From NCBI GenBank assembly GCA_900550445.1, contig URSF01000003.1, positions 1,158 through 65,157 of the forward strand: a DNA stretch of 64,000 nt. The letters are read 5' to 3'. This document shows, piece by piece, positions 57,333 to 63,999 of this stretch. The notes beneath the pieces were generated by a model, which searched no databases, was not told the DNA's origin, and saw only the letters and a list, made by a program, of their open reading frames with translations. Position 1 is the first letter of the stretch. Every line of letters starts with the position of its first letter. Position numbers and translations under genes: made by a program. The stretch comes from an uncultured Rhodospirillaceae bacterium. GTDB lineage: Bacteria > Pseudomonadota > Alphaproteobacteria > CAAGCB01 > CAG-977.

Positions 57333-57641
57333 TTATCCTTTCATCGTCCCGATATGATCCGCAATCAAATGGTCGTGTTTTTTAAAGTACAGCAAAAACA
57401 ACGCCAGCGACGCAACCATCTGGACGCCGGTCAAACAAGCCGTAAACAAAGAAAAAATCAATCCGGAAGCTTCATAAAACAAAGCGCTGCCCATTGAAAA
57501 GTTAAACAGCGAGCCTAAAAAAATCAGTTGCAGAGCCAGCAAAACGCGCATCAGATCTCCTCTGTGGCGCAAGATTCCCCACAACCCGAAAAACACCAGA
57601 AAAGAACTGATCGTCAAAATAACCGGCACATCTACTGTCAT
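57333..57641 (-). CDS. nuoK: complex I subunit K (both membrane Glu replaced by Gln)
   Basis: 102 aa with three TM helices and the typical ...TMKG ending. LLALQLIFLG and TGVQMVASLAL align to ..IELM.. and ..AAAEAAIGLA.. Confidence 0.8.
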   Translation of the reverse strand: MTVDVPVILTISSFLVFFGLWGILRHRGDLMRVLLALQLIFLGSLFNFSMGSALFYEASGLIFSLFTACLTGVQMVASLALFLLYFKKHDHLIADHIGTMKG

Positions 57642-57645
57642 CGCT

Positions 57646-58158
57646 TTATCCTTCCTGTGCTTTTTTTCCGGTCAGCAAAGCCGACAAACCGACCATGCAT
57701 GACAGGATCAAAGCGGCAAAAATCAAAACGCACAGGCTGTAATCCGCATACAGAATATCCCCCAAAACCGGCAAAGAAAAAACCGGCGCGGCTTCTTCGG
57801 ACGGCCATTGCGGTTTAAAAAACAAATATACGGTCTGCGCGCACAGCAGCATAAAAAACACAAAAGACGCCGCCGGCGCTTTTTCGGGAACAGTCGACTG
57901 CGTGCGGCGAAAATCAAAAACAATCAAGGCGAACATTAAAAAAACCAACATTGACGCCGCCGACATCGACAACAGAGCAAAGCTGACAAACCTGGCATTC
58001 AGGCCGGCTAAAATTCCCGCCACCGCAACAACGGCCTGTACCTGACAAAAAGCCGCATATAAAATATGTTTGACGCTAACCGACAGAAAAGCCGCCGTCA
58101 GCACCAGCAGGGCAAAAATATAAAACTCAACCGCGTACATCAGCTTTTTCCTTTTCAA
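57646..58158 (-). CDS. nuoJ: complex I subunit J
   Basis: 170 aa with five hydrophobic helices, lying between nuoI and nuoK. The likely start is at 58140 (MYAVEF...). Confidence 0.65.
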   Translation of the reverse strand: MKRKKLMYAVEFYIFALLVLTAAFLSVSVKHILYAAFCQVQAVVAVAGILAGLNARFVSFALLSMSAASMLVFLMFALIVFDFRRTQSTVPEKAPAASFVFFMLLCAQTVYLFFKPQWPSEEAAPVFSLPVLGDILYADYSLCVLIFAALILSCMVGLSALLTGKKAQEG

Positions 58159-58474
58159 ACATCAACGCCTTCCGGGGGCAGGATTCAATACACAGTCCGC
58201 AGGAAACGCACCGTTCGCCGGATAATTTGAAATCAACCGGCATACGGTCGTCCCGTATTAATGTTTTTACCTCGATTGCCCGGGACGGACAAATTTTCAT
58301 ACATAATTTGCACCCTACGCATTTATCCGGATCAACCGCAGGCAGGCGCGCTCTGACGCTTTCGGCGAACTTTATTTTCTGTCCGGCACCCTGTCCGACG
58401 ACATAACGCAAAACGACAAACAGACTGCGCCAGACGTCCGCGAAAAAAACCGAATGAATCTTTTTCATATTCAT
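58127..58474 (-). CDS. nuoI: complex I subunit I (short 2x[4Fe-4S] ferredoxin)
   Basis: CVGCKLCMKICP and CVSCGLCIESCP. 115 aa. Confidence 0.8.
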   Translation of the reverse strand: MNMKKIHSVFFADVWRSLFVVLRYVVGQGAGQKIKFAESVRARLPAVDPDKCVGCKLCMKICPSRAIEVKTLIRDDRMPVDFKLSGERCVSCGLCIESCPRKALMFEKEKADVRG

Positions 58475-59485
58475 CTAGGCTCCTTTCTGCATGAAATACA
58501 GGATTCCCGCCGTCCCGACCAGCCAGACCAGAGCGAAAGGCAGAAAAACCTTAAAGCTCATATTCATCAACCTGTCCGTCCGCCAGCTGGGCAGAACGTA
58601 TTTCATCAGCGTCAAAATAAAAAGCAGCAGGCACGTTTTTATCGCCAGCCACGCGAACGACGGCAAACCGGCCGACCCGAACAAAGGCATCGTACCGCCC
58701 AGAAATAAAACACTGCCCAAAGCCGCGCATAACAGCAGCAAAATATTTTCACACGCCAAAAACAACAGATACAGACCGCCGCCGTATTCCGCGCAAACGC
58801 CGCCGGCCAGTTCTCTTTTGGATTTCGGAGCTTCAAACGGCGCCTGCCCCAGCAGCATGGCAACCGACAGCAAGTATAAAACAAACAGCGGGAAATGAGG
58901 CGCGACAAACCATATTTTTCTTTGCGCCCTGATAACGGAATACAAATCCGGCGCCCCCGCCGTCATTAAAATCGTCATCACGACGACCGTCAGGATCGAC
59001 TGGCAGCACAGCGACTGCGCGATCATGCGCACCGCCCCGAAGAAACTGAACCGTGTCGCGCTGCTCCACCCGCCGGTAATAAAAGCGTACGTGCCGCAGG
59101 ACGCGACGAACAGCAAATATAACAAGCTGAAATCAGGGTGCAGAAAATATTCCTGATTAACCGGCAGGAAAAAAAAGAAAAACAAAGAAAAGACAAAAGC
59201 AAACAACGGCGCCGCGACAAACAGCGTTTTTTGCGCATGTTCAGGAACAGCCGGCTGTTTCAACAGCATGACGCAACCCCGGCGCAGCCGCCGGATAACA
59301 GACCGAACCGGCCGCATTTCAATTCTGGCGCGCAGTATTTCCTGTCCCTGACAGACTAACAACCCGGACGCCAAAATGACGGCGCAATATAAAAAAGCAT
59401 GCAGCATCATACTGCCGGCCGGCGCCAGTTCATGTAAAAAGGGCCGAATTTCCGTTTCAATCAAAGAATTAAGAAAATCATTCAT
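58475..59485 (-). CDS. nuoH: complex I subunit H (divergent)
   Basis: Start set at the ATG at 59485, which overlaps the nuoG stop (ATGA). GGWSSATRFSFFGAVRMIAQS and APFEAPKSKRELAGGVCAEYGG align to NuoH signatures. Confidence 0.8.
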   Translation of the reverse strand: MNDFLNSLIETEIRPFLHELAPAGSMMLHAFLYCAVILASGLLVCQGQEILRARIEMRPVRSVIRRLRRGCVMLLKQPAVPEHAQKTLFVAAPLFAFVFSLFFFFFLPVNQEYFLHPDFSLLYLLFVASCGTYAFITGGWSSATRFSFFGAVRMIAQSLCCQSILTVVVMTILMTAGAPDLYSVIRAQRKIWFVAPHFPLFVLYLLSVAMLLGQAPFEAPKSKRELAGGVCAEYGGGLYLLFLACENILLLLCAALGSVLFLGGTMPLFGSAGLPSFAWLAIKTCLLLFILTLMKYVLPSWRTDRLMNMSFKVFLPFALVWLVGTAGILYFMQKGA

Positions 59486-62585: not shown

Positions 62586-63165
62586 TTCGATCGTCCTGAT
62601 TTAAATCAACGCCGAAAGAACGGACAGCCGTTTGATCCGGACGGCTGACAAAGACGCACTGTTCTTTTGCTTCATCATAAATCAAATGTTTCGTTCCCCC
62701 GGTCGGAAACGTTTTACGCAAAGGATAAAACCCCGTTTCGTCCTGAGTCAGCAGCCGACGCAGATCAGGGTGGCCTTCAAAAGAAACACCGAACATTTCC
62801 CGTATTTCGCGTTCATACCACACCGCGTTCGGAAAAACCGGCGCCGCGGACAAAACGGGCACATCTTCTTCGGTCGTCAATACCAGCCGCAGACGGCGGC
62901 TCATCAAAGGACTCAGTAAATGATACGTCAAAGTAAAACAATCCTGCCTGTCCGGATAATGCGTACAGCAAACGTCGGTCAGCTGAGAAAAACGGCAGGC
63001 CGGATCGTCGCGCAGAAACTGCATGACCCGCAGCACGGCCGCCCGCAGAACACGCAAAGTCAGCATGCCCGACACGACAACATTTTCGGGAATGTCCTGC
63101 TTAGCGAAATGCAGACAGATAAACTGTCCGAATTCTTCCTGCGTTTTACAAACCGAAATCGCCAT
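62575..63165 (-). CDS. nuoC: complex I subunit C
   Basis: Start set at the ATG at 63165, just after the nuoB stop. The NuoC-like core is AAPVFPNAVWYEREIREMFGVSFEGHPDLRRLL. Confidence 0.75.
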   Translation of the reverse strand: MAISVCKTQEEFGQFICLHFAKQDIPENVVVSGMLTLRVLRAAVLRVMQFLRDDPACRFSQLTDVCCTHYPDRQDCFTLTYHLLSPLMSRRLRLVLTTEEDVPVLSAAPVFPNAVWYEREIREMFGVSFEGHPDLRRLLTQDETGFYPLRKTFPTGGTKHLIYDEAKEQCVFVSRPDQTAVRSFGVDLNQDDRNDV

Positions 63166-63166
63166 G

Positions 63167-63631
63167 CTACCCTTCCCTGATCCTGTCCCGAATAATGCCG
63201 CGCAGCTTTTCCACGCCGGCAACCAATCCGGCCGCGTCGGGCGGACAGCCGGGAACGCACACGTCCACCGGCAGAATATCCCGGACGGCGGCCACCGCAT
63301 AAGAATTTGCGAACAGCCCGCCGTTAATCGCGCAGTTTCCGAAAGCAATCACATATTTCGGCGTCGGCATCTGATCATAAATCCGCCGGGCGACAACGGC
63401 CGCTTTGGCGCTTAAAGCCCCGTTGACGACCAGTACATCGGCATGGTGCGGATTAAAAACGGGTTCCATACCCGCCCGGTTCATTTGCGCAAAACAGGAA
63501 CAACACCCCGTTGAAACCGGCATGCCCGTTTCCGCCTGAGCGCACACCCAGGCCGCCAAAGTCTGAAAAGCCACGGCGGCGACCCCGTGTTTTTGCAGTC
63601 TGTCCAGCCAGCCGTCCCGCTTTATTTCCAT
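63167..63631 (-). CDS. nuoB: complex I subunit B
   Basis: N2-cluster Cys contexts are retained: TGCCSCFAQM, FGNCAINGG and VPGCPP. Confidence 0.85.
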   Translation of the reverse strand: MEIKRDGWLDRLQKHGVAAVAFQTLAAWVCAQAETGMPVSTGCCSCFAQMNRAGMEPVFNPHHADVLVVNGALSAKAAVVARRIYDQMPTPKYVIAFGNCAINGGLFANSYAVAAVRDILPVDVCVPGCPPDAAGLVAGVEKLRGIIRDRIREG

Positions 63632-63999
63632 TCCAGCGCCCCTTTTTTATATTCATAAAAATAGCCGATTCCCCAAAAAACAACAACCAGCAAAGCCGTC
63701 GCGATCCCCTGGCCTTCCGACAGACGCAGCGACATCGCCCACGGTAGCAGCAGCAGAAATTCGGCGTTAAACAAAACGAACAGCAGCGCGACAAAGGCGA
63801 AACGAACGGGAAACCGGCTGGTCACGGAAGAAAGAATATAAAACCCGCCGGCGTAACCGTCGTTTTTAACGGTTTGCTTATACCGGCCGAACAGCTTAAA
63901 GCTCAAATACGCGGCAAATTTCAAAGCAGCCGCGCTGACGATCAGAGCGGTTACGAAAAAGATTAAAAAATAAAAATAAGCGTGCGTCACGTTTTCCAT
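63622..63999 (-). CDS. nuoA: complex I subunit A
   Basis: 125 aa with three TM helices. FVLFNAEFLLLLPWA aligns to the F-D-x-E...FPW signature. It is the first gene of the operon. Confidence 0.75.
   Translation of the reverse strand: MENVTHAYFYFLIFFVTALIVSAAALKFAAYLSFKLFGRYKQTVKNDGYAGGFYILSSVTSRFPVRFAFVALLFVLFNAEFLLLLPWAMSLRLSEGQGIATALLVVVFWGIGYFYEYKKGALEWK

Follow-up and report, generated by a model that had tools for sequence, protein, structure and literature searches.

A 64,000-nucleotide stretch of contig URSF01000003.1, from an uncultured Rhodospirillaceae bacterium of the lineage CAG-977, carries an operon for a divergent respiratory complex I (Nuo) in which the quinone site and most of the canonical proton relay have been replaced and every iron-sulfur (Fe-S) ligand has been retained. 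We call the whole stretch the window. Twelve packed genes, nuoA-B-C-D-G-H-I-J-K-L-M-N, occupy its minus strand from 52616 to 63999, and each open reading frame (ORF) could be assigned one-to-one to a complex I subunit family with Pfam and NCBIfam (Table 1). A first-pass annotation of this DNA had placed the feature at 57333-63999; that interval lies within the operon and covers only part of it. All 12 ORFs are intact, as the same annotation had stated, and neighboring starts and stops overlap or abut. The operon thus encodes 12 of the 14 complex I subunits in canonical order, nuoE and nuoF being the two that are missing. In canonical operons, and in deeper members of the clade described below, these two genes lie at the nuoD/nuoG junction; in the window neither is found between nuoD and nuoG, and homologs elsewhere in the genome were not searched for.

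Most of the subunits scored far below the NCBIfam equivalog cut-offs (NuoL 124 vs. 556, NuoH 173 vs. 450, NuoK 44 vs. 89), and only NuoD lay narrowly above its own (380 vs. 360). The closest PDB relatives of NuoD, NuoN, NuoA, NuoH, and NuoK were chains of the Paracoccus denitrificans enzyme (8qby) and of mitochondrial complex I, and we therefore take the operon to be an alphaproteobacterial or mitochondrial-type derivative that belongs neither to the hydrogenases nor to the 11-subunit lineage. Membership among the group 4 [NiFe]-hydrogenases failed on NuoD, which has no CxxC pair at either its N-terminus (NIAPEPAAGIGMCRLV) or its C-terminus (LNLITTETDR) and matches the PDB chains of MbhL and HycE far more weakly than those of complex I. 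An Mrp antiporter was likewise rejected: NuoB, C, D, G, H, and I are encoded, Mrp models score far below Nuo models for NuoL, NuoM, and NuoN, and most of the conserved relay Lys/Glu have been replaced.

Substitutions were checked both by phmmer alignment to PDB chains and by MAFFT alignment with 46-78 canonical alphaproteobacterial operons from genomes. The two approaches agreed, which rules out an alignment artifact. The sole ambiguity is a possible one-residue shift in transmembrane helix 12 (TM12) of NuoL.

In the peripheral arm, the quinone-site residues have been replaced. Compared with Paracoccus NuoD (8qby_D), GPQHPAAHG reads APEPAAGIG, and both quinone-site His are gone: I19 (codon 62529-62531) occupies the position of the quinone-ligand His38 (Thermus numbering), and the preceding His is now P15. 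LDRLDYVAP reads LADKLNRSAP, which places an Arg (R68, codon 62382-62384) at the equivalent of Tyr87. The His of the RxH motif (RMHAAYFRPGG), which we take to be the N2 redox-Bohr His, has become Leu; the Asp139 equivalent, D120, is kept. NuoB retains the four N2 Cys (C43, C44, C100, and C129); its RYD motif is gone, as are the Glu that follows CC and the majority of its invariant Arg and Tyr.

The Fe-S ligands of the arm are complete. NuoG keeps those of N1b (C34, C45, C48, and C62), N5 (H94, C98, C101, and C107), and N4 (C143, C146, C149, and C183), and with the eight Cys of NuoI and the four of NuoB, 24 of 24 ligands of clusters N1b, N4, N5, N6a, N6b, and N2 are present. Clusters N1a and N3 are absent along with NuoE and NuoF. 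By hand calculation, retention of all 24 has p ~4e-7 at the highest per-subunit retention (0.54), and the retention is clearly non-random against the remodeled background.

Along the E-channel, NuoA reads YAGGF for YECGF (E50 and C51 replaced by Ala and Gly) and FNAE for FDLE, so that the Asp79 equivalent is N78 (codon 63766-63768) and the Glu81 equivalent, E80, is kept. NuoH reads AQSLCCQ for AQMVSYE, with the TM5 Glu replaced by Q162 (codon 59000-59002), and APFEAPKSKRE for APFDLPEAEAE (PEAE to PKSK). Its first-loop KE is KQ and its ETNR is LGQ (L211..Q214); E225, E233, and E246 are kept. In NuoJ, the Tyr59 equivalent of TM3 is S60 and two invariant Glu are R50 and M97. Both transmembrane Glu of NuoK have become Gln (Q38, 57528-57530; Q74, 57420-57422).

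All three antiporter-like subunits are altered as well. In NuoL, the TM5 Glu is D139 (GWEG to GWDL), K222 of TM7 is kept, and the TM7-8 signature (PLHxWLPDAMEGPTP and IHAATMV) has been remodeled; the two His and the Lys of the HAFFK segment are A327, L331, and M335, and the TM12 Lys is I391, next to an Asp that probably corresponds to D393. NuoM keeps E142, K221, and the TM8 Lys, K252; two of its His are Q309 and Q335, and its TM12 Glu is Q394 (54318-54320). NuoN keeps E138 and K220, its TM8 Lys is R250, its TM10 His is L308, and its TM12 Lys is R391. The TM5 acid and TM7 Lys are therefore retained in NuoL, NuoM, and NuoN alike, and the titratable residues of TM8 and TM12 have been replaced across the three, save for NuoM K252 and, probably, NuoL D393.

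One possibility is that such a complex is still a quinone reductase and ion pump that binds its substrate unconventionally (for example, menaquinone scavenged from the gut community) and relays protons through polar or Arg residues in place of Glu and Lys. The overall architecture and the Fe-S chain are intact, several key residues persist (NuoD D120; NuoH E225, E233, and E246; NuoA E80; and the TM5/TM7 pairs of NuoL, NuoM, and NuoN), and Y87 mutants of model enzymes are active with short-chain quinones, in the work as it is cited in PMC4758237. We nevertheless judge this explanation very improbable. The two headgroup ligands have been replaced, as have the N2-adjacent His and a large part of the cavity lining in NuoH and NuoB; there is no NADH site; and the changes from Lys to Arg, Glu to Gln, and Lys to Ile yield residues that cannot shuttle protons. 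Moreover, relatives are reported to lack quinone synthesis and quinol-oxidizing enzymes: no terminal oxidase is listed for CAG:239, CAG:267, CAG:977, and 46_36 (PMC6431628, text and Tables S1/S2), and no bc1, SDH, Men, or Ubi entries for CAG:239 and 46_36 (PMC6431628).

How far the remodeling extends was assessed at canonical invariant positions, defined as those that are at least 95% invariant in canonical alphaproteobacteria. Between 22% (NuoI) and 63% (NuoD) of them survive, and about half have changed; NuoI is at the bottom of the range, yet it keeps 8 of its 8 Cys. Selective neutralization of ionizable residues was considered and rejected, as the rate of loss is about equal for ionizable invariants and for invariants overall. 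The neutralized residues are part of a global remodeling that is not specific to ionizable positions.

These results alter the first-pass annotation in part. Each substitution that it reported in NuoD, NuoH, NuoK, NuoA, and NuoL was reproduced in profile or pairwise alignments, with no canonical residue turning up at a shifted position, and its statement that the Fe-S Cys of NuoB, NuoI, and NuoG are retained agrees with the complete ligand set. Its description of the NuoM and NuoN motifs as retained is correct for NuoM E142, K221, and K252 and NuoN E138 and K220, but not for the TM8, TM10, and TM12 changes. A systematic neutralization of acidic residues, as it proposed, is not what we found, and the damage is not confined to the quinone site and E-channel, since the NADH module is gone (the absence of nuoE and nuoF had gone unmentioned), the antiporter-like subunits are altered, and so many invariants have changed. 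Among the new roles that it suggested were a different acceptor, altered coupling, and a structural role; our results favor a loss of both substrate sites and a shift of constraint toward the membrane arm.

Such extensive change might suggest an operon that is decaying under relaxed selection, only recently non-functional and heading for loss, and some relatives are indeed eroded further (NuoG truncated in locus L085 and split in L086, nuoA uncalled, and N1b Cys lost in three lineages). We estimated the ratio of nonsynonymous to synonymous substitution rates (dN/dS) by the Nei-Gojobori method between the window and its close relatives L087 (NuoD 91% identical) and L088 (82%). In three independent pairwise comparisons, with dS at ~0.5-1.4, all 12 genes had dN/dS values of 0.02-0.20, comparable to those of the controls birA (0.11-0.17), the neighboring helicase (0.14), and glycogen phosphorylase (0.03). 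The most constrained were NuoK (0.02-0.06, the lowest of the operon) and NuoL (0.065-0.09). No stops or frameshifts were seen in the 12 genes across 9 lineages, down to a NuoD identity of 46%. Hundreds of positions are invariant specifically within the clade, and translational coupling has been preserved, including a repaired D/G junction. We conclude that the operon is not a pseudogene and is held by strong purifying selection. Ongoing decay is the least credible of the explanations that we considered, even though about half of the canonical invariants are gone. The first-pass annotation had likewise argued against simple pseudogenization, and both the birA-like dN/dS values and the fixation of the substitutions across a deep clade support it; frameshifts accumulating in relatives, which would have spoken for decay, were not seen, though some relatives have the truncated or split NuoG.

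Constraint has also shifted among the subunits. Among 632 canonical alphaproteobacterial pairs at 70-84% NuoD identity, the best conserved subunits were NuoI, NuoK, and NuoB and the worst were NuoL, NuoJ, and NuoC, and this order is inverted in the variant clade. Relative to NuoD, identity fell from 1.10 to 0.67 for NuoI and from 1.06 to 0.90 for NuoB, and it rose from 0.84 to 1.09 for NuoJ, from 0.84 to 1.04 for NuoL, and from 0.79 to 0.97 for NuoC. NuoL has 190 positions that are near-invariant clade-wide, 63 of which match the canonical majority residue and 127 of which differ; 38 of the new near-invariant positions are polar or charged. NuoM has 154 near-invariant positions, with 80 matching canonical, and both proteins carry dozens of clade-specific invariant polar residues. 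In NuoI there are just 23, most of them in the Cys motifs. The pattern does not resemble uniform decay; instead, the membrane arm seems to have come under new constraint and that on the electron wire to have been relaxed.

When NuoD was used as a protein query, the matches formed a graded series of metagenomic relatives that ran from 100% to 46% identity and then gave way to canonical sequences. Named relatives include "Acetobacter sp. CAG:977" from the human gut, a sheep-rumen metagenome-assembled genome (MAG), and "Alphaproteobacteria bacterium" MAGs, and a clade-profile scan of genome contigs found at least two clade genomes (L001 and L002). Both NuoD His are missing from 31 of 31 aligned clade sequences. 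The His38 position varies within the clade (I/M/V/T/S/A/G), and the Tyr87 position is Arg in most members and still Tyr in a CAG:977-like branch. In a neighbor-joining tree of NuoB+C+D+G+H, whose topology was not bootstrapped, the clade is monophyletic on a long stem and branches as one lineage from canonical alphaproteobacterial operons. Its sister locus, L089, is a canonical 14-gene operon that keeps 68-94% of the canonical invariants (NuoJ 68% and NuoK 76% being the lowest and the other nine 82-94%) and 57-97% of the ionizable ones. L089 shares the clade's upstream synteny, which runs from a RecD-like helicase through a variable small ORF (120-144 amino acids [aa] where called) and a 112-113-aa ORF to nuoA, and because it is canonical at the same locus the remodeling maps to the clade stem. 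Downstream, the arrangement of birA and the RNase J gene recurs in relatives and also served as a synteny marker.

This placement bears on the idea that the operon is a divergent second isozyme and that a canonical complex I elsewhere in the genome does the respiration. Some bacteria carry two complex I isozymes, according to the statements on this point in PMC4859585 and PMC4453560, and the inspected DNA amounts to 64 kb of the genome. Against it, the operon sits at the ancestral locus, with the upstream synteny of L089 and with birA and rnj downstream; it belongs to a single lineage branching from canonical operons; and no standard NuoA-N set, oxidases, or quinone synthesis are recorded for related MAGs in published surveys. 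We regard a second isozyme as very improbable, a little more so than persisting quinone reduction.

The clade members differ in how much of the enzyme has gone. The window subclade (L081, L087, and L088) has an identical 12-gene set. L083, L084, and L002 ("Acetobacter sp. CAG:977") have a remodeled quinone site, E-channel, and NuoL, and nuoE and nuoF are still present in them. L085 and L086, the two loci with incomplete NuoG, are without nuoEF, and nuoA was called in neither. Some further changes in the window subclade are absent from some or all of the nuoEF keepers, namely NuoL TM12 Arg to Ile/Val and NuoL PLH..PD..E to N..Q..G; the TM12 Glu of NuoM is Gln in the window subclade, still Glu in L084 and L002, and Asn in L083. 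Where NuoF is kept (loci in Table 1), it is the best conserved subunit (57-74% identity) and retains the N3 Cys, and its flavin mononucleotide (FMN)/NADH motifs have been destroyed: GRGGAGFPTG reads GRG[IM][YF][GA][QE]KT[AS], CGEETAL reads CR[VT]DSA[LM], and KPPFP is lost. The destruction of these motifs in deeper members indicates that both substrate sites were lost early, and a NuoF of this kind may be neofunctionalized or purely structural. The neighbor-joining tree and the gene orders imply that nuoEF was lost at least twice independently. The losses were stepwise: the substrate sites and relay residues came first, the N-module next (at least twice), and parts of NuoG last.

The 113-aa ORF that precedes nuoA by ~50 nucleotides in all relatives falls beyond the right edge of the window. 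Its product has no Pfam match and is 89-97% identical across most of the clade (NuoD 47-82%) and 73% identical in L086, with a dN/dS of 0.026, and it was not found in 78 canonical alphaproteobacterial loci. We considered it as a clade-specific accessory subunit and rejected this, since canonical L089 has a 71%-identical homolog at the same place. The predicted protein is best described as ultra-conserved and group-specific.

In 9 of 9 lineages, including those with a truncated or split NuoG, no ligand of N5, N4, N6a/b, or N2 has changed. This raises the question of a retooled oxidoreductase, in which N5/N4, N6a, N6b, and N2 would still conduct electrons in turn, with a low-potential donor at one end and an acceptor other than quinone at the other. 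Possible donors are PFO ferredoxin, an [FeFe]-hydrogenase, and a HymAB-type NuoEF homolog acting in trans, and possible acceptors are soluble anions, sulfur compounds, and partner proteins; the cavity would be neutral or cationic (NuoD Tyr to Arg, two NuoH Glu to Lys, and NuoJ Glu to Arg); and conventional pumping would be absent or minimal. The conserved Arg at the Tyr87 position in most clade members and the strong conservation of NuoF where it is kept fit this scheme. Precedents are the large subunits of MBS/Mbx and Ehr, which lack NiFe and quinone ligands alike, and the Fpo-like complexes, for which a partner protein has been proposed as the electron acceptor (PMC4758237); relatives also carry PFO, ferredoxins, and HymABC (PMC4967309). 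On the other side, the fastest evolution is now found in two Fe-S subunits, NuoI and NuoB; NuoI keeps little besides its Cys motifs; a newly selected active site would not be expected to vary as the His38 position does; the N-module has been dispensable at least twice; and no new partner gene lies in or beside the operon at the relatives' loci examined. On balance we consider a retooled oxidoreductase unlikely, while ranking it well above the other alternatives discussed.

The 12-gene complex is probably an exapted, non-respiratory derivative of complex I. It would be an orthologous descendant of the alphaproteobacterial (mitochondrial-type) nuo operon whose roles as NADH:quinone oxidoreductase and proton pump were given up in the ancestor shared by a strictly anaerobic clade from gut and rumen, and which purifying selection has since kept as a 12-subunit Fe-S membrane complex with a different, non-respiratory role. 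An L-shaped assembly with clusters N5-N4-N6a-N6b-N2 would still form, with no NADH oxidation, no canonical quinone reduction, and no canonical Glu/Lys proton relay. The selected activity would then reside mainly in the remodeled NuoL/M/N/K/J/A, possibly as redox-independent transport or scaffolding, and the peripheral arm would serve mostly as a structural cap, its clusters being required by the ferredoxin-like folds. We lean slightly toward a role centered on the remodeled membrane arm, be it redox-independent transport or an essential structural function, with the peripheral arm as an assembly cap. The fuller proposal is put forward more tentatively and falls just short of an even chance: that in strictly anaerobic, fermentative gut Alphaproteobacteria a mitochondrial-type complex I turned into a "pseudo-enzyme" in which the NADH site, the quinone site, and the canonical proton relay were abolished, and whose 12 subunits were long retained because the remodeled membrane arm gained a new activity (redox-independent transport of ions or solutes, or service as an essential membrane scaffold).

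Several points weigh against this interpretation. Expression, assembly, and activity are predictions from the gene sequences, and the complete set of Fe-S ligands is as compatible with ongoing electron transfer as with maintenance of the fold. The remaining TM5 acid/TM7 Lys pairs may permit some ion-coupled activity. Low dN/dS is also common in membrane proteins on biophysical grounds and is therefore weaker evidence for a function located in the membrane arm. Our view covers 64 kb of the genome, with any second nuo, ndh-2, nqr, rnf, or quinone synthesis genes lying beyond it, and the physiology is taken from papers on relatives rather than from this genome.

In one of those papers, [FeFe]-hydrogenases and their maturases are ascribed to CAG:977, CAG:239, and CAG:260, which are described as Rhodospirillales-like anaerobes of the gut (Degli Esposti et al., PMC4967309). 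PFO is present in CAG:977 and CAG:260 and is entered as "?" for CAG:239 in the table, and CAG:977 and CAG:239 have a separate HymABC (NuoEF-like) cluster (PMC4967309). Enterousia/Rs-D84 belong to a different order and are without any complex I. Elsewhere in the window, flagellar genes and an ATPase operon with the N-ATPase gene order are consistent with a motile fermenter, and the organism is likely to be motile and to need an ion-motive force despite having no working complex I, as judged from its gene content. The flagellar cluster comprises DUF6468, FliM, FliL, two FlgF/G-type rod proteins, FlgA, and FlgH. The ATP synthase operon reads beta, epsilon, AtpQ-like, a 100-aa membrane ORF, a, c, b, alpha, and gamma, with no delta; this is the atpDCQRBEFAG order of N-type (Na+-exporting) ATPases. 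Helix 1 of the c subunit contains a Glu (GLAEGYAV) and helix 2 the sequence IIETSGIY, which together resemble a full Na+-binding set.

Other features of the window include two, perhaps three, paralogous genes for a DUF6782 putative metallopeptidase on the minus strand (the probable third is adjacent to one of the two, and the other is set apart by an opposite-strand MscS-like channel gene), and large ORFs of 997, 584, 245, and 243 aa without a Pfam match (E <= 1e-3 to 1e-8). Genes for GluRS, GatA/GatB, and a lysyl-tRNA synthetase are also present; the last is of class I, the rarer type among bacteria.

Table 1. Coordinates of the nuo genes and of the other features mentioned in the text
Feature	Sequence	Coordinates	Strand	Remarks
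nuoA	window	63622-63999	-	125 aa; Pfam PF00507, PDB alignment, canonical columns
nuoB	window	63167-63631	-	154 aa
nuoC	window	62575-63165	-	196 aa from MAISV; longer TTG ORF overlaps nuoB; relatives 191-197 aa
nuoD	window	61425-62585	-	386 aa
nuoD stop/nuoG GTG start overlap	window	61425-61428	-	cgGTGAtc, 4 bases
nuoG	window	59482-61428	-	648 aa; molybdopterin-like domain present
nuoH	window	58475-59485	-	336 aa from M17 of ORF
nuoI	window	58127-58474	-	115 aa; bare 2x[4Fe-4S] ferredoxin core
nuoJ	window	57646-58140	-	164 aa
nuoK	window	57333-57641	-	102 aa
nuoL	window	55503-57326	-	607 aa; length fits long lateral helix
nuoM	window	54057-55499	-	480 aa
nuoN	window	52616-54046	-	476 aa
birA	window	51869-52606	-	directly downstream of operon
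RNase J (rnj)	window	50193-51869	-	after birA
113-aa ORF	L087	5321-5662		
113-aa ORF	L088	5118-5459		
113-aa ORF	L081	8191-8532		
113-aa ORF	L002	8171-8509		
113-aa ORF	L089	7902-8240		
NuoF	L083	11658-12905		
NuoF	L084	11651-12901		
NuoF	L002	11649-12899		
Flagellar cluster	window	5927-11671		
ATP synthase operon	window	12382-19303	-	
AtpQ-like	window	16984-17436		PF09527
Membrane ORF of ATP synthase operon	window	16682-16984		
ATP synthase c subunit	window	15655-15933		
DUF6782 paralog	window	45639-46649	-	the gene set apart
DUF6782 paralog	window	47748-48647	-	
DUF6782 paralog (probable)	window	48649-49647	-	HEGRH motif
Large ORF(s) without Pfam match	window	1670-4663	-	
Large ORF(s) without Pfam match	window	33042-34796 and 35056-36539	+	
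Class I lysyl-tRNA synthetase	window	30731-32323	+	PF01921
GluRS	window	24142-25599		
GatA/GatB	window	41118-44064		

A selection-maintained mitochondrial-type complex I that is "pump-dead" and "substrate-blind" would match, residue by residue, the site-directed mutants made over decades. From it one can learn what in the architecture matters apart from redox-driven pumping and whether the membrane arm functions autonomously. The clade also records stepwise remodeling of a respiratory complex in free-living anaerobes, a mirror-image parallel to the reduction of complex I in anaerobic mitochondrion-related organelles. There is a practical side as well: public databases label the clade proteins as ordinary "NADH-quinone oxidoreductase subunit," and because of this plain annotation, respiration would wrongly be inferred when the metabolism of abundant gut Alphaproteobacteria (CAG:977 and relatives) is reconstructed.

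We found no literature description of a vestigial or degenerate complex I like this variant, with RF32, CAG-239, and Enterousia included in the search, and none of a secondary mitochondrial-type derivative that is conserved across a clade despite the loss of both substrate sites and of most of the proton relay. Three comparable states are already known separately, namely a NuoD without H38/Y87, a NuoEF-less Nuo with NuoG, and an organism that is quinone-free and keeps its Nuo. The nearest reference is the canonical 14-subunit enzyme of P. denitrificans (8qby), with which the window operon shares orthologous A-D and G-N subunits in the same gene order; unlike that enzyme, it is without NuoE/NuoF, H38/Y87, the E-channel Glu/Asp, and most of the TM8/TM12 Lys/Glu of NuoL, NuoM, and NuoN.

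Campylobacter/Helicobacter-type Nuo resembles the variant in having kept NuoG, lost NuoE and NuoF, and derived from a 14-gene operon. There, NuoE/F have been replaced and flavodoxin is the donor, as Weerakoon & Olson 2008 are cited in PMC12361115. Campylobacter-type operons carry two replacement genes between nuoD and nuoG, whereas the window has a direct 4-base overlap, and the enzymes are described as respiratory quinone reductases. The 11-subunit enzymes of Desulfitobacterium hafniense (PMC11238625) and Dehalococcoides mccartyi (PMC6005880) likewise come from strict anaerobes and have no NADH module. In contrast to the window operon, with its 648-aa NuoG bearing three cluster motifs, they are also without NuoG and are regarded as ancestral. 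The D. hafniense enzyme is rotenone-sensitive and feeds the quinone pool (PMC11238625); quinone-free D. mccartyi keeps its operon at low abundance, with function unknown (PMC6005880).

Closest in the state of the large subunit are Ehr, Mbx-MBS, and the "ancestral" Nuo of Nautiliales, Desulfurobacteriales, and Sulfolobus, which lack the NiFe Cys and the quinone Tyr/His and for which a non-quinone function is presumed (PMC4758237). These are deep, separate branches, whereas the window complex arose secondarily within the alphaproteobacteria and has also lost most of its relay residues. The ion-translocating Lys/Glu of the Mrp-like modules are kept in Ehr, Mbx-MBS, and "ancestral" Nuo. Finally, the variant recalls pseudoenzymes, catalytically dead homologs that retain their fold and remain under selection and are presumed to have taken on a new role. 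That concept usually applies to a single protein; here, it would extend to a whole 12-subunit respiratory machine.

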